A stretch of 64,000 nucleotides of DNA from Anaeromyxobacter sp. (GTDB taxonomy: Bacteria; Myxococcota; Myxococcia; Myxococcales; Anaeromyxobacteraceae): contig JASGJN010000016.1 in assembly GCA_049840735.1 (NCBI GenBank), positions 1-64,000 of the forward strand. Direction: 5' to 3'. Both the position numbers and the translations under genes were made by a program. Below, piece by piece: positions 4,069 to 43,313 of the stretch. Position 1 is the stretch's first letter. The number at the start of each line of letters is the position of its first letter. The notes under the pieces are model-generated. The model had not been told where the DNA came from. It searched no databases and worked only from the letters and a program-made list of their open reading frames with translations.

Positions 4069-5534
4069 GTCGGCTTCCCGGCTGAGCTGGGGACGCCCGT
4101 CAGCACCCCGCGCAGCTCCCGGAAGGGGGACCGCTCCGACACCTGCAGCCCCTGGGGGCCGATGGTCATGCCCCGCACCTCGGTGTCCACGTCCACGCCG
4201 CGCGCCTTGATGATGGAGATGGCGCGCTCCAGCCGGCCGCCGAGCTCGACGTAGCGGAGCTGGATGACGTTGTCGCAGGCGAAGGAGACGCCGTGCCCGG
4301 ACAGCTGCCCCGTCCCCAGCAGCTCGGGGATCTCCATGGTGACCACCAGCGTCACCCCGGCGCGGCGGAGGTGCTTCGCGAGGGCGTAGACGAACTCCTT
4401 GTACCGGCGCTCGGAGATGGCCCCCAGGGCCAGGCTGGTGAGGCTGTCGAGGACCACCCGCTTCACCCCGGCGTTCCCGATCTCGTCGCGGACCTGCTGC
4501 AGGAAGCGATCGGTCGAGAGCTCGATGGGCGCGGCGTAGCGGATCCGGATCAGCCCCTGCTCCTCGAGCGCGGGCAGGTCGAAGGAGAAGCCGGCGGCGA
4601 TGCTCCGGATCTGATCCGGCGTCTCCTCCAGCGTGAAGAGGAGGCCCGGCTCGCCCCGGCGGGCCCCCTCGACGAGGAAGTGCAGGCCGAGGAGCGTCTT
4701 GCCGGTCCCGGTCCCGCCCATCAGCACCGTGCTGCTGGCCGCCGGGAGCCCGCCGCGCAGGAGCTGGTCCAGCTGCGTGATCCCGGTGGGCACCGGGTCA
4801 CCGCGCGGCGGCGGCCGCTCCGCGGCCGGCGGCGCGCTGACGCGCGGGATGACCCGCAGGCCGCCCGCGTCGAGCTCGAAGAAGTGGACTCCGGGCACGA
4901 ACCCCGAGCCCCGGAGCTTCTGCACCTCGATCTCGCGGATGCGCATCAGGTCCTGGGTGGCGCTGCCCATCCGGATGATCCCGTCGGCGATGGCGAACTC
5001 GGGGAGCCGGCCCTGGTCCTCCGCCGAGTACTCGCCCACCAGCAGCGTGGTGGCCCCCCAGCTCGCCATGTGCACGGCCAGGTCGAAGGTGAGCGTCCGG
5101 GTCCGGAGCGCATCTCCGGAGAGATCGTGCAGCGCCTTGTAGCTGTCGATGACCACCAGCGCGGGCTCGTCCGCCTCCACCCGCTGCGCGATGGTCTCGA
5201 CCGCGGCCTCGGGCGTCTGCCCGCGGAGCGCGCTCCCCAGGTCCACCACCTGGATCCGGTCCTCGAGCAGCGCGGCCTCGAAGAACCGGAACCCCTGCAT
5301 GTGCCGGACGAGCTTCAGCGAGGGCTCGGAGAGCGTGGTGAAGTAGATCGAGCGCTGCCCTCGCCGCGCGGCGTGGAAGAGCATCTGCAGCGCCAGCACG
5401 GTCTTGCCGGAGCCGGGCTCGCCCGACAGGAGCGTGATGGAGCGGGCGGGGATGCCGCCCTCGAGCACCGTGTCCAGGGCCGCGTCGCCGGTGCTGACCC
5501 GCTCGAGCCGGAGCCCCTCCCTCTCGCCGCTCAT
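4065..5534 (-). CDS. KaiC-like double-domain RecA-superfamily ATPase
   Basis: Two domains with GEPGSGKT/VVIDS and GGTGTGKT/VVLDS motifs, TLEE, and KLRGS/KARG arginine fingers. Confidence 0.9.
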   Translation of the reverse strand: MSGEREGLRLERVSTGDAALDTVLEGGIPARSITLLSGEPGSGKTVLALQMLFHAARRGQRSIYFTTLSEPSLKLVRHMQGFRFFEAALLEDRIQVVDLGSALRGQTPEAAVETIAQRVEADEPALVVIDSYKALHDLSGDALRTRTLTFDLAVHMASWGATTLLVGEYSAEDQGRLPEFAIADGIIRMGSATQDLMRIREIEVQKLRGSGFVPGVHFFELDAGGLRVIPRVSAPPAAERPPPRGDPVPTGITQLDQLLRGGLPAASSTVLMGGTGTGKTLLGLHFLVEGARRGEPGLLFTLEETPDQIRSIAAGFSFDLPALEEQGLIRIRYAAPIELSTDRFLQQVRDEIGNAGVKRVVLDSLTSLALGAISERRYKEFVYALAKHLRRAGVTLVVTMEIPELLGTGQLSGHGVSFACDNVIQLRYVELGGRLERAISIIKARGVDVDTEVRGMTIGPQGLQVSERSPFRELRGVLTGVPSSAGKPT

Positions 5535-5917
5535 CCCGCGTCCTCCTCGCCCGCCAGGCCGGCCTCGACCAGCTCCGCCACGCGCGCCAGGTGGCGCGAG
5601 ACCACCGGCCCGGTCAGCTCCCGGAACAGCGGCTCCAGCTCCTCGCGCACCAGCCTGCGCAGCGCCTGGACGGCGTCCGCCCGGGCAGGATCGCGCCAGT
5701 GCGCGGGGAGCACGAAGGCGTACTCCAGCCCTTCCCGGTTCACCGCGACGCCCTGCAGCTCGGGGATCCGGGGCACGGCGCGCTTGAGCGCCCTGCGCAT
5801 CAGCGCGGCGGTGGCGGGCGTGCTGATGAGCGCCACCAGCTCGTCCCAGAGCCGCTTGAACAGGTCCGCGGCGGAGCCGGGCCCGCTGCCCCGCAGCGGC
5901 GTCACCGAAGTCGTCAC
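5531..5917 (-). CDS. Small hypothetical protein, first gene of the KaiC-like operon
   Basis: 128-aa helical ORF whose stop overlaps the KaiC-like ATG by 4 bp; high-GC codon pattern. Confidence 0.7.
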   Translation of the reverse strand: MTTSVTPLRGSGPGSAADLFKRLWDELVALISTPATAALMRRALKRAVPRIPELQGVAVNREGLEYAFVLPAHWRDPARADAVQALRRLVREELEPLFRELTGPVVSRHLARVAELVEAGLAGEEDAG

Positions 5918-6084
5918 TCGGACCCCTTCGAGCGAGGGTCCGGCGGAAGGCCGGGCGCGACGCTCAGGCTGCTTCCGAGTCTAGCGGGAGGGAACCCGGG
6001 GCGAGCGTTCACCTAGGGGCGTGGGCAGAACCCCAGGTGGAAGCACCCTCCCCTCCTGGTGCTCCCGCCCGGGCACCGTGCGTT

Positions 6085-6294
6085 TCAACGCCCGGTGGCT
6101 GGACGCCCGCCCGCCAGCAGCCGCGCCGGCAGCAGCAGCGCGGCCCGCAGCGTGGCCAGCACGCCGTCCACCGCGACGCCCAGGAGCCGGAACGGCAGGA
6201 GCAGCAGCCAGACCAGCGGGTAGAGCAGGAGCGCGGCCAGGGCGAGCGGCCAGCACACCACCAGCAGCAGGGCCCACAGCAGGAAGGCGACCAT
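6085..6294 (-). CDS. Small hydrophobic membrane protein (69 aa)
   Basis: MVAFLLWALLLVVCWPLALAALLLYPLVWLLLLPFRLLG..., preceded by a GGAGG-like RBS. Confidence 0.65.
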   Translation of the reverse strand: MVAFLLWALLLVVCWPLALAALLLYPLVWLLLLPFRLLGVAVDGVLATLRAALLLPARLLAGGRPATGR

Positions 6295-6381
6295 GCCCTC
6301 CCCTACGCCGGCCGGGGCCAGGAAATTTCGACACTCCCCGCTTGCCCCGGCGGGCACGATCCCTGGAGACTCTCCTGCCTG

Positions 6382-6756
6382 ATGAGCAAGCGGCCCCACA
6401 TCCTCGTGGTCGACGACAACGAGGCCATGCGCGACAACCTGCTCGAGTGCCTGGAGCAGGAGGGCTACGCCGCGGACGCGGTGGCCGACGGCGCGGCCGC
6501 GCTGGCGCGCCTGGAGCGGGCGCCCCGGCCGGACGTGGTGCTGATGGACCTGCTCATGCCGGGGATGGACGGGCGGGCGCTGGCCGCGGCCATCCGGGCC
6601 GAGCCGCGCTGGGCCGGGGTCCGGCTGGCGCTCATCACCGGCGCCGAGCTCCGCCCGCGCGGCGTGGCCGAGGTGGACGAGGTCCTGCCCAAGCCGTTCG
6701 GCGTGGCCGAGCTGCTGGCGGCCATCCGGCGGCTGTCGCCGCCGTCCGCCGGCTGA
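6382..6756 (+). CDS. Stand-alone response regulator receiver protein
   Basis: ILVVDDN, PDVVLMDLLMP (phospho-Asp intact), LITG and KPF motifs. Confidence 0.9.
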   Translation: MSKRPHILVVDDNEAMRDNLLECLEQEGYAADAVADGAAALARLERAPRPDVVLMDLLMPGMDGRALAAAIRAEPRWAGVRLALITGAELRPRGVAEVDEVLPKPFGVAELLAAIRRLSPPSAG

Positions 6757-36963: not shown

Positions 36964-37052
36964 GGCGCGACTGCACCACCGCGGGCGCGGCCCGACCGGA
37001 CCGCGCGCGCGGGGCGCAGGGCAGGCGGATGGGCCGGACGGCTCCGACCGCC

Positions 37053-37805
37053 CTACGGCGTGACCACGACCGTGAGCTCGATGTGCCGCCCGTCGGCGGT
37101 CCAGGCGCTCACGTCCGACGTGCAGCTCGTTTCGCTGGCGGGGACGGTCGTCACCACGCGCAGGCGGTCGGGCTGCGGCGCGGTGACGTCCACGTCGCAG
37201 CTCCAGTCCGGCGACCATTGGAAGCGCTCGAACGGCAGCTCCGGGATGATCTCCAGCACGTCGCCGGAGCCCACGGCCACCTCGTAGATGCGCCGGCTCC
37301 CGTACCCCGCGACGCGGGTCGGCTGGATCTGCACGCCGTCGGAGGTGAAGTCCGCCTCGAGAAGCGCGAGGTCGTCGGGCACGGGCTTCACCAGGAAGTC
37401 GTAGCTCATGGTCGAGGCAGAGAGCTCATACTCGCTGGAGCAGCTCTCGTTCCGGCAGATGTGGAACGTGAGGGCCCCCACGTAGTGGCCGTCCGGGATC
37501 CCGTAACGCAGGTTCATGGCCAGGTAGTAGTGGCCGAAGCCGAGGTCGTTCACGTAGGTGTTGTTCTCGAGGACGTTGGCCGGGTCCTCGATGAGGACGC
37601 CCGCCGCCGAGCCGGGGTTCGGCGACAGCGTCACGCGCGTCCCGAAGCCCTTCGAGCCGTCATCCTCGTAGAACTCGCGGGTGATGGAGTCGGGCGAGAA
37701 CGTGGCCTCGATTGGCCCGCCGCCCCCGCCGCCCCCGCCTCCGCAAGCCGTCAGCACCACCGCGAGCGCTGCGACGGCGCCGAGCCGCTTCCCCTTGCTC
37801 TCCAT
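37053..37805 (-). CDS. Hypothetical lipoprotein
   Basis: Lipobox LTAC followed by a poly-Gly linker; acidic, beta-rich body. Confidence 0.75.
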   Translation of the reverse strand: MESKGKRLGAVAALAVVLTACGGGGGGGGGPIEATFSPDSITREFYEDDGSKGFGTRVTLSPNPGSAAGVLIEDPANVLENNTYVNDLGFGHYYLAMNLRYGIPDGHYVGALTFHICRNESCSSEYELSASTMSYDFLVKPVPDDLALLEADFTSDGVQIQPTRVAGYGSRRIYEVAVGSGDVLEIIPELPFERFQWSPDWSCDVDVTAPQPDRLRVVTTVPASETSCTSDVSAWTADGRHIELTVVVTP

Positions 37806-37884
37806 GGCTGAACCCCCTCCCTGGGGTCACGGCACTGTGCCCGAATGAGTACCTTGCCCGCCCACGGCATTCGGCCGCGACGCC

Positions 37885-38044
37885 CTCCGCTGCCCCCACA
37901 AGCGCGCGGGGCGGTTCCCGCGTCGCGGAGCCGCCCCGTTGGCTGCGATTCCTGGCGGCGCTGGTCCCGGAGGACGCGCCGATCCTCGAGCGAACCGACC
38001 TGACCCACCCTTCGCCGACGGGCGAAGGGCGGGACAGCGCCTAG
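37885..38044. mobile_element. Decayed miniature copy of the adjacent element (transposase 3' remnant fused to a right end)
   Basis: 37990-38044 matches 39533-39587 at 44/55 nt, and 37962-37980 is identical to 38129-38147. The left boundary is uncertain. Confidence 0.65.
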
Positions 38045-38340
38045 GAGCTGTCCCGAAATTCGAGCTTGAGGTTGTAGAGGAAGGCCACGGCGGCGACCGT
38101 GGATCCGAGGTGTCGCCCCCGCCGCCGGTGGTCCCGGAGGACGCGCCAGTCTTTGAGGCGAGCGAGGACGTGCTCGACCCGGGCGCGCTGTTTGCGGTGA
38201 CGGCGCCAGGCGGCGTCGGGGACGATCCGGTTGTGACGGAAGACCGGGATACGGAGGCCCAGGACTCCCCGGTATCCGCCATCGGCGAGGACGACACGGT
38301 GGCCTCGTTGCCCGGGCCACCGGCGGAAGCCAACCCTCAC
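38041..38340 (-). pseudogene. IS5-family/DDE_Tnp_4-type transposase, C-terminal fragment
   Basis: VLADGGYRG (second Asp) and RARVEHVLARLKDWRVL (Glu motif); stop lies at the left TIR; the N-terminal part is absent. Confidence 0.82.
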
Positions 38341-39584
38341 TGAACAAGATGTCAGGGTCTGGGTTCACGATGAGCGGGTGAGCGCGTCTGCCAAGCGAAC
38401 CCGTGGTCCGAACCGGCAGCGGCCCTGGACCCGCCGGCCCGAGGACGGGATCTCGGTGCTGCGGCTCGCGCTGGACGTCCACGACCCGGTGCAGCGACGT
38501 CGGCTCGAGGGGATCTTCTCCGGGGCCTACCAAGTCCGGCGCGCGCTCCAGCGGACGGCGCGGAATCGTAGGCGGGCGGCTCACCAGGGTGGAGCTGGAC
38601 GGTCAGGCCAAGGAGCGGGTCCGGGGTCGCAAGCGCCGTGAGCGACGTCGACAGCGGGCCCTGGAGCGGTCGCGCCGGGCGGCGAACCAGGCCCAGTACC
38701 GGCTCTCGAGGCGCCAGGAGAAGCGCGCCCGCCGGCGGGCCGCAGCAGGCCTCACGCCGGTCGAGGTGATCCCTGGAGGCCCGCGGCTGGCGCGGTCGGA
38801 CGGCGTCCCGCTCCAGGCCTACCGGCGGGACACGCTCTCGAAGCGCTACCGCCTCCTCCGGGCTGAGCAGGCTGCCGCTGCATCGTCGTGGACGCAGGCC
38901 CGGCGCGACCGGGCCCGGCAGGTCGCCGCCGAGGTGGTACGCACTCACGGCTATCAGCTCGCCGTCGAGGACGTGACCATCACCGCCTGGGCGCGCACCT
39001 GGGGGCGCGGGGTGGCCGCCTTCACCCCGGGGACGCTGCTCGCGGCCATCGACCGGGAGGCACGTGCCACCGCAGCCGTCGTCGGAGGCGTTGGCGGCGT
39101 GGTCAGGATCCCCACGCAGACCACCGCCCTCTCCCAGCACTGCCCCTGCGGCAACCGGGTGGAGAAGTCGCTCGCCGACCGGGTCCACCGCTGCCCTCGC
39201 TGCGGGCTGGAAGGGGACAGGGACGCCGTCTCCGCGGTCCTCGGCGCCTTCCTCGTCCTCGATCGGCCCAGCGAGCCAGCCACGGCGCGCGTCGACTACG
39301 ACGCCACCCGGCAAGCCCGCGCCGCCATCGGTAACCTTCTCGATCCTCGCTGTCGCGGGCGGCAAGACGCCCGGTCCGAGTCAACCGACCTCTTCGCCCG
39401 CGAGCCGTCCTTCGCATGGCGGACGTCCACACCGGCAAGCAAACCGGTGGCTCGGCGAATCGTCGGCACGGCCACGGGCCCAACCCGGGATGAGGCTGGC
39501 TCCGGCCAGACCACGCCCGAGCGGGCCCGATGGCGAACCGACCTGGCCCACGCTTCGCCAATTGGCGAATTGTGGGACAACTCT
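38044..39584. mobile_element. TIR-bounded IS5-like element carrying a TnpB-like gene (non-autonomous, internally deleted)
   Basis: Left TIR GGAGCTGTCCCGAAATTC versus the reverse complement of the right end AGAGTTGTCCCACAATTC (14/18 match). TA at 38042-38043 and 39585-39586 reconstitutes a CTAG target. Confidence 0.8.
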
Positions 39585-39587
39585 TAG
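38378..39587 (+). pseudogene. tnpB: TnpB/Cas12-like RuvC zinc-ribbon protein, with frame break and probable internal deletion at ~38570
   Basis: Arg-rich helical region, LAVED (RuvC-II), TALSQHCPCG...RVHRCPRCG zinc ribbon and DRDAVSA (RuvC-III). No RuvC-I motif is visible, and the N-terminal piece (38378-~38570) is in another frame. Confidence 0.75.
39370..39584 (+). ncRNA. Candidate omega-RNA-like scaffold overlapping the 3' end of the tnpB-like gene
   Basis: Nested stems: TTCGCC..GAGCC/GGCTCGGCGAA, CACCGG/CCGGTG, GTCGG/CCGAC, CGGGCCC/GGGCCCG, CTGGC/GCCAG, and a terminal CCCAC..TTCGCC-AATT-GGCGAA..GTGGG hairpin. The 5' boundary is a guess. Confidence 0.5.
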
Positions 39588-39712
39588 ACGGTCTTCTTGG
39601 CCTTGCGCTTGCGGGAGTTGCTGAGCACGCGCTTCCGCTTCGCCTGCACGCGCTTCACCTTGGACCGGTTGGACACCTTCCGCTTGGAGCGGTTGCTGCG
39701 CTGGGCGGGCAT
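39584..39712 (-). CDS. Small highly basic protein (42 aa)
   Basis: MPAQRSNRSKRKVSNRSKVKRVQAKRKRVLSNSRKRKAKKTV with an AAGGAG RBS and biased codons. Confidence 0.75.
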   Translation of the reverse strand: MPAQRSNRSKRKVSNRSKVKRVQAKRKRVLSNSRKRKAKKTV

Positions 39713-39813
39713 TCGACTCTCCTTCGTTCGCGAGGGCGGCGGCTCGCCGCCGGGTGGGGCTTCCAAAAAAGGGCGCGAGTCTCGCCGCCCCGTGGGCATC
39801 CGTCAAGGGCGGC

Positions 39814-40917
39814 TCACTCCAGCCAGTCCCGGTCCCGCAGCTTCCTCGGCAGGTACTCCTCGGTGATGAAGCTGATGCCGCGCCGGGAGAGGGCCTCCAG
39901 CTCGTACTTCTCGCCGGAGCGGACCATCTCCTGGATCTCCTTCTGCCACTTGGGCGCCTGGAACCAGGGGTACGCCAGCATCTGCTTGGCGCGCGACTGG
40001 TCCTGGTCGTTCATGGGGATGGAGACGTTGCTGGGCAGCTTGTACTTGGTCTTGTCGAACGACGACAGGCCCACGAAGCGCGCCCCGGGCACGGCCATGC
40101 GCATCGACTCGTAGGCCAGGTTGATCGAGCCCTGCTTGAGCACCGAGTAGATGTAGAAGCCCCAGGGATCGTTGTCGACCAGCACGTACACCGGCAGCTT
40201 CAGCTCGGTGTGCAGCCGCTGCACCACCCGGCGCACGCCGCGGGGCGGCTGCCCCTGGCCGGTCACGATGATGCACTTCTCGCGCTGCCAGAACTTGTCC
40301 TCGTTGAAGCGCTTCCAGACGGCGTCCTTCTCGATGAGCAGGATGTACTTCGCCTCGCTCTTGCCGAACTGGACCACGTGCTCCTCGACGATGGAGGGCA
40401 CCGACCAGCCGCCCGAGCCCATGCGGCGCAGGTCGATGGTGTCCCCGGTGTCGCGGATGGTGAGCGGGCCGACCATCGAGCCGCGCCCGGTGGCGAAGAG
40501 GTGCAGCTCCTCGCGCAGGGCGTCGATGGACACCTCCAGGTCCTCGATGATGGGATCCGACTCCTCCTGCTCCTCGAAGGTGTTCTGCTTGGTGTCCCCG
40601 AGGCCGTGCTTGGTCATGTAGTAGAGGTCGCGGATGCTCGTCGTCTTGCCGGCGTCGATGAGCTCCTTGCAGGCCTCCGAGACCAGGAACGTCTGCATGA
40701 ACTTCTTGGCCATGCTGACGTTGAAGAAGTAGCGCTTCTGGCGCTGGTTCCCCAGCTCGATGAGCCGCTTCTTCTCGTTGAAGCGGACGTTGGCCAGCGA
40801 GCGGATGGGGATCTCGAGGAACGGGTTCTTCCCGCCCTTCACGCTCTTGAGGACGCTGTCCGCCAGCTTCTCGATCTTCTGGACGGTCTGCTTGTCGATC
40901 TGGTCGAGCCTGGGCAT
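39814..40917 (-). CDS. top6A: DNA topoisomerase VI subunit A (Spo11-like)
   Basis: TSIRDLYY catalytic Tyr region, IEKDAV, TGQGQP, VDNDPWG TOPRIM motif and KYELEAL. Confidence 0.95.
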   Translation of the reverse strand: MPRLDQIDKQTVQKIEKLADSVLKSVKGGKNPFLEIPIRSLANVRFNEKKRLIELGNQRQKRYFFNVSMAKKFMQTFLVSEACKELIDAGKTTSIRDLYYMTKHGLGDTKQNTFEEQEESDPIIEDLEVSIDALREELHLFATGRGSMVGPLTIRDTGDTIDLRRMGSGGWSVPSIVEEHVVQFGKSEAKYILLIEKDAVWKRFNEDKFWQREKCIIVTGQGQPPRGVRRVVQRLHTELKLPVYVLVDNDPWGFYIYSVLKQGSINLAYESMRMAVPGARFVGLSSFDKTKYKLPSNVSIPMNDQDQSRAKQMLAYPWFQAPKWQKEIQEMVRSGEKYELEALSRRGISFITEEYLPRKLRDRDWLE

Positions 40918-40920
40918 GGC

Positions 40921-43050
40921 CTACTCCTGCTCCTCTTCCGACCGGCGCGGCCGCCGAGTGATCTTCTCCGACTGCTCCTGCAGGGCCGCGTCCTGCTCGG
41001 CCAGCTCCTGCTCGGTCACCTTGTCCGCCAGGCGCAGGAACTCGCGCTTGATGGGATCGGCGCTCCGCTTCGTGATCCGGCCGATCGACTGCGCCACCTC
41101 CTGGATGTACAGCTCGAAGAGGCTGCGGCGCTGGGCCTGGTAGTCCAGGTGCTTCTTCTTCCGGATGTGCGCGGCCAGCTTGCGCCCGCACTCCTGCGCG
41201 GCCAGCTGGATCTCGCGCATGATCTCCGGGTAGTGGGCCACGGCCTCCTTGGCCTCGCTGGTGAACGGCACCCAGACCGAGGCGATGTGGACCAGCAGCG
41301 CCATGGGGCCGACCGGCAGCGAGCCCTTGGGCTGGCTGAGCAGGTAGTTGCGCCAGTCGGTCTTGACGATGGCCTCGGTCATGCCGCAGGCGCCGCGCTG
41401 GAAGAGCAGCGGCACGCGGTTCGCGAAGCGGAACAGCTCGATGGGCTTGTCGGCGGGCCAGGAGCCGCCGTACGCGAGCCCGACCTCCACCTGGAAGGGG
41501 TTCCCGCGGTAGACCTTGGGCGGCCGCGTGACGGTGGAGATGAAGTAGTTGTGCCCCTTGATCTTCTCGACGCCCTCCTCGGGCGGCGCGTCGGGCACCT
41601 CGGGCGCGGCGGCCTTGGCCTCCTTCTCCTTCTTCGACGACTTCTTCTTCCTGGCCTGGTCGAGGTCGAGCTGCTCGTCCGCCTCCGGCCCCTCGGTCTC
41701 GATCACGTTGAGGAAGGAGATGAGCCCCTTCTTCATGAGCTCGTCGCCGATGGGCGAGAGCACCTGCGTCGGCGGCGCCATGATCTTCGTGGCGGCGATG
41801 GCCTTGTGCAGCCGGTCGGCCAGGTCGCGATCCTCGGCCAGGTCGCGGGGGCGGACCCTGGCCTTGAACCCGGCGGCCTTGACGATCTCCTCCGCCACCG
41901 GCCCCGACACGCGCGAGAAGGCGGTCTGCAGGAACCCCTTCACGTCGTGGCTCTTGGAGTCGGCCGCCATCACCATCAGGGCGCCCAGCTCGACGCCGTG
42001 CGGGTGGGGCTTGATCTCCTGCGCCTCCTTGGGCAGCTCCTCGGTGGCGCGCGGGAAGCTGAGCCGCTCCTGGCGCGGCCGCACGTAGTGGAAGGTGGCG
42101 TGCGGGTTGGAGAGGGCGGTGTGCTCGACGTAGCGGTTCACGAACCGCTGCCCCTGCTGCCAGTTGGCGACGATCTCCAGCTCCACCCGCGTGCCGTGTT
42201 CCTGGTGCCACTCGGCCAGCTCCCGGTCGGCGGTGACGACCGGGTTGTTCTTGCGGGTGTCGATCTGGATCTCGAACCAGTGGGCCGGCTTGCTCTTCGC
42301 GATCCGCGAGGTGACGCGGATGGGCTGGCCGGTGGTCAGCTGGCCGTACATGGCGGCGGCGCTGATGCCGATGCCCTGCTGGCCGCGGCTCTGCTTGAGC
42401 CGGTGGAACTTGGAGCCGTAGAGCAGCTTGCCGAAGATCTTGGGCGCCTGGGCCTTCACGATGCCGGGCCCGTTGTCCTCGATCACCACCACGAAGCGCC
42501 CCTCGCCCTTGGTCAGGTCGCCCTCGCCGCTGGGCTTGAGCGCCAGGTCGCGGACCTCGATGGTGATCTCGGGGAGGATGCCGGCCTCCTCGCAGGCGTC
42601 GAGCGAGTTGTCCACGGCCTCCTTGATGGTGGTGAGGAGGGCCTTGGAGGCGTTGTCGAAGCCGAGCAGGTGCCGGTTCTTGGTGAAGAACTCCGAGATG
42701 GAGATCTCGCGCTGCTTGGCGGCCATCTGCTCGGCGGTGGCCCGCCGGCGCGGCGCCTTCTCGACGGGCGCGGCCGGCTCGGCCTCCACCGGCTCGGGCG
42801 CGGGCGCCTCCGCGACGGGCGGCGCCGCCCTGCCCCTGGCCGCGGCCTTGCCCTTTCCCTTGCCCTTGGCCGGCGGCGGTGGGGGCGGCGCCGCGCGCCT
42901 GCCCGGAGGTGGCGCGGCCGCCTTGGCGCCACGCCCGCGCGCCGGCGTCGCCGGCACCACCAGCTCGAGCTGGCTCGGCGCCCTGCCCGCCGGCTTCACC
43001 TTCCCGCCCTTCGCCGCCTTCGCCGCCGCTGCGCTCTTCCGAGCCGCCAT
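40921..43050 (-). CDS. top6B: DNA topoisomerase VI subunit B
   Basis: REISISEFF, KEAVDNSLDACEE, EDNGPGI, QSRGQQGIGIS, KPHPHG, RFANRVPLL and VPFTSEAKE motifs. Confidence 0.95.
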   Translation of the reverse strand: MAARKSAAAAKAAKGGKVKPAGRAPSQLELVVPATPARGRGAKAAAPPPGRRAAPPPPPPAKGKGKGKAAARGRAAPPVAEAPAPEPVEAEPAAPVEKAPRRRATAEQMAAKQREISISEFFTKNRHLLGFDNASKALLTTIKEAVDNSLDACEEAGILPEITIEVRDLALKPSGEGDLTKGEGRFVVVIEDNGPGIVKAQAPKIFGKLLYGSKFHRLKQSRGQQGIGISAAAMYGQLTTGQPIRVTSRIAKSKPAHWFEIQIDTRKNNPVVTADRELAEWHQEHGTRVELEIVANWQQGQRFVNRYVEHTALSNPHATFHYVRPRQERLSFPRATEELPKEAQEIKPHPHGVELGALMVMAADSKSHDVKGFLQTAFSRVSGPVAEEIVKAAGFKARVRPRDLAEDRDLADRLHKAIAATKIMAPPTQVLSPIGDELMKKGLISFLNVIETEGPEADEQLDLDQARKKKSSKKEKEAKAAAPEVPDAPPEEGVEKIKGHNYFISTVTRPPKVYRGNPFQVEVGLAYGGSWPADKPIELFRFANRVPLLFQRGACGMTEAIVKTDWRNYLLSQPKGSLPVGPMALLVHIASVWVPFTSEAKEAVAHYPEIMREIQLAAQECGRKLAAHIRKKKHLDYQAQRRSLFELYIQEVAQSIGRITKRSADPIKREFLRLADKVTEQELAEQDAALQEQSEKITRRPRRSEEEQE

Positions 43051-43188
43051 GAGCCGTAACCTCGCGATATCTGCCGCCATCGCCCGTGTAACACGAGCGG
43101 GCGGTGGGCGCGAGAAAGCGGCAGGCGGTGGGGCGCCTGGTTTCGAGCCTGTCGGCGGGTGGTTGCGGGTGGGAGCGCGCGGTCGCTC

Positions 43189-43313
43189 CCGTTCGCGGTT
43201 CGACAAGCTCACCGCGAACGGAGGCGTGCACCGCGAACGGAGGCAGCTCACCGCGACCTGAGGCCGCTCACCGCGAGCGGAGCCAGCCCAGCCAAGGCCA
43301 GCGCCGCGAACGG
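43189..43313. repeat. REP-like hairpin plus four or five degenerate ~19-20 bp tandem copies of GCTCACCGCGAACGGAGG
   Basis: CCGTTCGCGGT-TCGACAAGCTC-ACCGCGAACGG, followed by repeated CACCGCGA(A/C/G)C(G/T)G units. Confidence 0.7.

Follow-up and report, generated by a model that had tools for sequence, protein, structure and literature searches.

TnpB proteins of the IS200/IS605 and IS607 elements (ISDra2, ISXfa1) carry a RuvC triad and a zinc ribbon, and are accompanied by a structured RNA which runs over the 3' end of the gene into the flank. These elements have a Y1 or serine transposase, are devoid of TIRs and target duplication, and encode shorter proteins, in contrast to the element described here, which has a DDE transposase, TIRs and a TA duplication. 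In IS607 a fixed flank base is taken into the scaffold, according to the consulted text of PMC10711439, and in Fanzors of eukaryotic TIR transposons the 3' TSD lies inside the RNA scaffold and the 5' TSD is part of the TAM, according to the consulted sections of a 2026 review (PMC13565253); both sources provide precedent for flank or TSD bases inside a scaffold. TnpB has also been catalogued beside DDE transposases. Altae-Tran et al. 2023 reported six DDE-transposase TnpB groups (DDE-1 to DDE-6), all with inverted terminal repeats (PMC10691335), and in the portion of that text consulted DDE-6 (IS630) is given in detail and DDE-5 in one line. The 2026 review, in the sections consulted, puts ISL2, IS630 and IS1031 among the DDE-linked TnpB groups, and regards DDE and TnpB pairs as rare in prokaryotes and as a poor fit to the restorative-homing model (PMC13565253). 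Why a cut-and-paste DDE element keeps an RNA-guided nuclease is the question on which the present family bears.

Here we analysed a stretch of 64,000 nucleotides from Anaeromyxobacter sp. (the window) and show that positions 38044-39584 are a non-autonomous copy, with two deletions, of an IS5-family (IS1373-like) element of ~2.8 kb that carries a DDE transposase and TnpB. It resembles DDE-1 to DDE-6, as these appear in the consulted text of PMC10691335, in having TnpB beside a DDE transposase, inverted repeats, the TnpB 3' end at the element end, and solo or deleted copies that retain those ends. The same portion of text describes neither an IS5 layout nor a CTAG/TA target and is silent on stop-codon bias, an RNA model and a TAM; the figures, tables and Additional Files 10-11 of that paper may already show the family. 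A literature search, in which subscription journals were largely uncovered, found no functional study of the family's target, RNA or TAM. The preliminary description of this DNA had proposed a distinct family pairing a DDE transposase with TnpB; the family did prove coherent, with shared TIRs and the transposase linked at 64/68 loci, and is not new in kind given the precedent in the consulted text of PMC10691335. The pairing itself being known, what is added here is a model of guide, TAM and self-avoidance that is concrete enough to be put to the test.

A decayed copy of the element in the window

The left TIR (38044-38062, plus strand, on the transposase stop side) recurs as the same end in other copies, and the right TIR (39566-39584, minus strand, on the TnpB stop side) has its terminal T at 39584. 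Comparison of 38045-38062 with the reverse complement of 39566-39583 found 15 of 18 bases identical, and CTA on the outer side of each, which bears out the 18-bp imperfect repeats noticed earlier. The TA seen on both sides, read as a CTAG target, was located at 38042-38043 and 39585-39586, and the empty-site pairs of relatives (see below) agree with this reading; the right TA would also be part of the predicted RNA scaffold (CUUA, 39583-39586), as judged from the RNA alignment. In an intact element the transposase and TnpB genes point outwards from the middle, each with its stop codon in a TIR, and in the window, as claimed earlier, the minus-strand frame stops at one TIR after FRDSS and the plus-strand frame at the other after LWDNS.

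The minus-strand frame (38041-38301) is the C-terminal remnant of an IS5-family transposase, with the second D and the E kept and the HTH and first D lost. It corresponds to residues 194-279 of P0124, the full frame at locus L003, with 81% identity, and the reported motif ADGGY...RARVEH is present (Pfam DDE_Tnp_1, E 3.8e-6). On the plus strand, the C-terminal half of TnpB (38576-39587; 85% identity to P0004 369-707) holds the RuvC-II E, a C4 zinc ribbon, the RuvC-III D and a disordered tail. The motifs on which this protein had been recognised were located at 38964 (VED), 39141 (CPC), 39192 (CPRC) and 39216 (DRD), and the frame matched Pfam Cas12f1-like_TNB (PF07282; E 3.5e-6, above its cut-off), for the zinc ribbon between RuvC-II and RuvC-III. 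The N-terminus, missed earlier, survives in another frame at 38378-38575 on the plus strand as a fragment of the first ~65 codons (82% identity to P0004 47-122). Between the two lies the junction of a ~775 bp internal deletion (38575/38576), where 775 bases are missing relative to the copy on contig C26 and 773 relative to that on C20. RuvC-I, which had not been visible in the window copy, is absent because of this deletion, which removed the middle of TnpB including GIDVN and shifted the frame. The preliminary description had held the copy to be probably inactive; with RuvC-I deleted, the frame shifted and the transposase reduced to its C-terminal remnant, the window copy is, as judged from its sequence, non-autonomous and nuclease-dead, while both ends and the 3' RNA region are whole. 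The window copy in itself is ordinary decay.

Four further copies with both ends and unlike flanks are present in the same genome assembly (G000), on contigs C26 (2322 bp), C20 (2250 bp), C22 (1047 bp) and C13 (553 bp), lengths that include four terminal bases; the element in the window is therefore not a chance arrangement. The copy on C20 encodes an intact TnpB (P0004), 661 aa long from the start used in the window. A whole transposase was not found in this assembly, which is 94% complete, every copy in it being deleted there. A partial copy on contig C2 (52615-53331) has an internal inversion and an altered right junction.

Spread and relationships of the family

A TnpB profile search gave 234 clusters at E 1e-30 or better, and a search among longer proteins gave 380 matches, of which the 120 listed were 588-776 aa in length. 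Our locus set comprised 85 loci (5 genome, 80 metagenome), 68 of which included the TnpB start and 500 bases upstream. A divergent transposase was found beside TnpB in 64 of these 68 (near-duplicates kept), in line with the DDE transposase within 1 kb and the inverted terminal repeats by which the DDE-associated TnpB groups of Altae-Tran et al. 2023 are defined. The paired loci come from Myxococcota-like and Actinomycetota hosts, and the sequences around them are unrelated, which shows that the element moves; the neighbours seen were the transposase on the upstream side of TnpB and, downstream, host DNA of varied kinds. Whole elements were about 2.75-2.84 kb, with both ends and unrelated flanks, and locus L003 has both genes intact. 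The homologues thus agree with the suggestion that full-length copies would sit divergently from an IS5 transposase between the same TIRs with variable flanks. TnpB also matched five plasmid records, and all four annotated ones (Euzebya, Mycobacteroides, two Mycobacterium) carry the divergent transposase gene; in the fifth, an unannotated Streptomyces plasmid record, the right end alone was found. The element is patchy within its own phylum (6/401 genomes), and no relative of TnpB or of the transposase was found in viral contigs. The copy at locus L005 (444-4931) is swollen to 4488 bp because ~1.7 kb of extra DNA, probably a nested element, separates the transposase from TnpB.

The family transposase (~250 aa) matched DDE_Tnp_4 with a score of 36.4 against a cut-off of 24.8 and HTH_Tnp_4 below cut-off, and fell short of the curated NCBIfam IS5_4 cut-off (47 vs 140). 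Over 142 aa, its identity to records bearing the annotation IS1373 was ~48%. We take IS1373 to belong to the ISL2 subgroup of ISfinder. The family may well be the ISL2-linked group already catalogued by Altae-Tran et al. 2023. With IS1373-like Streptomyces elements it shares near-identical short consensus TIRs, CTAG/CTAA junctions and a short duplication at CTAG (two clean pairs of nine); unlike the present two-gene elements of about 2.75-2.84 kb, those are ~0.85 kb with a single gene, lack TnpB and the RNA, and have a start-side end that is free to vary.

Full-length TnpB of the family is ~660 aa, long for a TnpB. Among 143 homologues of at least 580 aa, the RuvC D/E/D residues are kept in 142, 142 and 141 and the zinc ribbon cysteines in 140-142. 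An AlphaFold model of P0004 (pLDDT 75) matched Cas12m2, Cas12f and TnpB (E 1e-9 to 5e-7; TM by query 0.31-0.37), with Cas12m2 giving the top matches (best E 1e-9), and the tail 629-707 was disordered in the model (pLDDT <50). Together with the Pfam match, this is in keeping with the TnpB/Cas12 assignment made earlier. Curated or sequence-based matches were weak: NCBIfam guided_TnpB was not reached (38.8 bits vs 100), IS607_TnpB scored 24-32 bits vs 350, and UnCas12m4a gave E 0.33. By sequence and fold comparison, we place the protein as a divergent clade of the TnpB/Cas12 superfamily. Cas12m and Cas12f, the best structural matches, are CRISPR effectors, whereas here the protein belongs to a mobile element with a putative end-encoded RNA and has an intact triad. 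On a mycobacterial plasmid (locus L156), an IS607 element (5164-6704) encoding a TnpB of its own is separated by 700 bp from a family copy. Profile comparison with this neighbouring IS607 TnpB was not significant (E 0.6), and therefore no origin is claimed for the family TnpB.

Target site, predicted RNA and the two ends

Nine pairs of occupied and empty loci were aligned between two genomes (G195 vs G198). CTAG with an exact gain of 2 bases was seen in two pairs (L130/L165, L137/L166), which supplies the empty CTAG sites looked for in relatives. Two other pairs (L139, L134) showed CTAG with a gain of 3, with one base of offset at the left junction; CTAG was kept with a diverged left flank in one (L142), and was absent from the other genome, diverged there, in four. 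Of 40 left flanks, 20 had a host gene whose own frame stopped at the junction (other frames 3, not coding-like 17), as did 38 of 63 right flanks (other frames 5, not coding-like 20). As host genes end in frame at each junction, both junctions carry host bases. These sequences fit insertion with duplication of TA at a CTAG target, which in most cases is a host stop codon, and the 3-base gain in two pairs leaves some doubt on the two-base duplication. A model without duplication, in which CTAA and TTAG are wholly element-borne, was ruled out by the in-frame host stops at both junctions and the two clean pairs. The host gene survives insertion, since its stop codon is hit but a stop is left in place; thus, in the window, the stop TAA of a small basic protein gene (39584-39799, minus strand; frame also in relatives) is formed at the right junction and the gene is spared. 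CTAG occurs in the window's genome at 0.22 of expectation. No empty site was found for the window copy, the orthologous loci of other genus members having diverged too far around the stop codon, nor for the mycobacterial and Streptomyces plasmid copies or locus L005. One DNA sequencing run, of which a small share was taken, covered 6/30 bins and was not used as evidence.

To the right, conservation ends sharply after CTTAG, with variable flank beyond. We aligned 50 right-end sequences (46 mutually <90% identical, 4 from plasmids). RNAalifold gave 30 nested pairs, 27 of them with double-sided changes, and these covarying positions show that the last ~230 nt of the element hold a conserved RNA structure under the disordered protein tail. 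By analogy this RNA is a predicted omegaRNA, the scaffold of which would span 39356-39587 on the plus strand (fold z -3.6), with an uncertain 5' boundary. A four-pair pseudoknot is plausible between UGAG (39491-39494, plus strand) and CUUA, which consists of the last two element bases and the duplicated TA. UGAG and CUUA pair in 48 of the 50 sequences (98% of cells), two mycobacterial ones breaking two of the four pairs; the pseudoknot is without covariation support because its columns hardly vary, with no double or compensatory change. The structure including it had 92.7% of cells paired, reached by 0/500 shuffles, against 29-42% in slid controls, a comparison in which the structure has an advantage as it was derived from the same alignment. 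The predicted guide would be the right flank (39588-39607, plus strand), antisense to the host gene end, by analogy with IS200/605 and IS607 TnpB. Rfam gave no omegaRNA family match; its sub-threshold microRNA match on a hairpin at 37998-38039 was taken as chance.

The two ends differ in variability. The TnpB-side end was CTTAG in all 78 distinct junctions. At the transposase-side end, base 4 differed in 13 and base 5 in 8 of 52 ends, these being the ends beginning CTA among 57 (the other five comprised two that were out of register and three in which CTA itself was changed). For base 4 the difference between left and right gave a Fisher P of 2.4e-6, overstated because of kinship; a quick 41-row tree, used for counting changes alone, put the base-4 change at no fewer than 8 events. 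Among 41 two-ended elements, 15 deviated at the left end alone, and in no case did the right end deviate. As a TnpB-less control we took 14 Streptomyces relatives, in 10 of which the start-side end was detectable; there the matching end was CTAAG in 3 and had G at base 4 in 4. In both genes base 4 falls on a silent position of its codon. Since the right end is fixed while the left end and the TnpB-less relatives vary at a silent position, the freeze of the right end is, on this small control set, tied to TnpB carriage. Left base 4 changes quickly, also inside a single genome, and the cause may be the joining chemistry and not drift. At loci L047 and L048, TnpB is identical and left-end base 4 is G in one and A in the other. 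Beside the left ends of L083, L027 and L041 and the right end of L044 there are additional CTAA units, in places several in a row, which could be either footprints left by rounds of insertion and excision or slips in the assembly.

Proposed role of the nuclease and the neighbourhood

We favour, with somewhat better than even confidence, the reading that the window holds a dead copy of a DDE element that stably carries TnpB, and that this RNA-guided nuclease cuts empty CTAG plus flank and spares its own TTAG plus flank. Cleavage, TAM and omegaRNA expression are all predicted here, by analogy with IS200/605, IS607 and Fanzor systems. The re-cutting of the empty site, raised as a possibility in the preliminary description, would thereby acquire a specific TAM and guide. 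In such a scheme the UGAG:CUUA pseudoknot would use the last two element bases and the duplicated TA, with the fixed G next, and the host DNA beyond CTTAG would serve as guide. TnpB would recognise CTAG, the TAM, together with the right flank, a combination expected only at an empty allele, either precisely excised or never occupied. A double-strand break there could be repaired from the occupied copy, so that the element would be restored or spread. The occupied junction, TTAG plus flank, would be spared by being one base off. A T-to-C change at the right junction would cost the pseudoknot one of its pairs and at the same time turn the junction into a self-target. Exactly that change is borne by a degenerate, older mini-copy of ~155 bp, missed earlier, which lies directly upstream in the same orientation (37889-38044, plus strand) and consists of a left-end-like start, a transposase 3' piece and a right-end-like stretch (37990-38044); the present copy sits in the resulting CTAG. 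Its alignment scores were 91 and 89, against 78 and 52 for the best of 300 shuffles, with 80% identity over 55 nt. The sequence suggests that the site was hit twice, the present copy apparently having inserted into a CTAG that came from the mini-copy junction. No match of CTAG plus at least 10 bases of guide was found in the window's genome for any of the 5 copies, an absence of self-targets that is expected by chance since CTAG is rare there. The pseudoknot alone could account for the fixed right end, without a role in self-avoidance.

It is possible, with a probability well below that of the favoured reading, that TnpB and its RNA are functional and RNA-guided for a purpose other than empty-site restoration, such as steering or throttling transposition, or Cas12m-like binding without cutting. 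The length of the protein and the Cas12m2 top matches point this way, as does what the consulted sections of the 2026 review give as the weak point of the homing model for DDE elements, namely that excision may leave a footprint or a break and not regenerate CTAG (PMC13565253). However, hardly any homologue departs from the catalytic triad, Cas12m, Cas12f and TnpB score much alike in the fold comparison, and there are relatives that lack TnpB but have the same ends and CTAG-like junctions, so that TnpB is not needed for targeting.

We consider it improbable that the TAM and guide start lie elsewhere, with the scaffold ending at the element boundary, the guide beginning with TAG, and self-avoidance depending on some unrelated motif or on bases that lie further to the left. 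That would match the IS200/605 arrangement as given in the consulted text of PMC10711439 and would suit a pseudoknot devoid of compensatory changes, and left-flank bases -1 to -6, which were only tabulated, could hold a weak motif; but no base left of CTA is fixed, so that the TAM would be a single C, and the UGAG:CUUA pairing is nearly universal in the alignment. Chance nesting of a foreign TnpB in an IS5 as inert cargo, to which the deleted transposases of all copies in the window's own assembly, where no intact one was found, and the 4 of 68 loci without a transposase match (L004, L035, L045, L067) might point, is largely refuted by the counts of linkage and conservation and is very unlikely, given the identical layout across phyla, the conserved catalytic residues, an RNA structure fused to the terminal repeat, and an open transposase frame of at least 225 aa reaching the left end in 22 of 45 loci.

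Returning to selective cutting of the empty site, we give an even chance to the broader proposal that a bacterial TIR lineage, present in at least two phyla, reached the Fanzor solution independently, with the TSD in the scaffold, the pseudoknot kept, the whole CTAG target as TAM, and C-versus-T discrimination between empty and occupied sites freezing one TIR and leaving the other to drift. The family resembles Fanzors in its TIR ends; unlike it, Fanzors are eukaryotic, and Fanzor1 lost the pseudoknot that the present family appears to keep. The parallel comes with sharp predictions on scaffold end, TAM and self-avoidance, and the family offers intact parts (both genes at L003, the P0004 TnpB) along with a natural TnpB-less control in the IS1373-like elements. 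If true, it would provide a prokaryotic model for RNA-guided nucleases serving cut-and-paste elements, and a CTAG-TAM nuclease.

In the neighbourhood of the copy, the region of about 37000-39587 looks acquired, because a PAS-like gene abuts the small basic gene in several relatives. A lipoprotein-like ORF of 250 aa at 37053-37805 had no Pfam match. The product of 39584-39799 is very basic, has no Pfam match either, and is conserved beside topoisomerase VI A in genus relatives. Beyond it, 39814-43251 encodes topoisomerase VI subunits A and B in this bacterial genome, subunit B having a long low-complexity N-terminal part.
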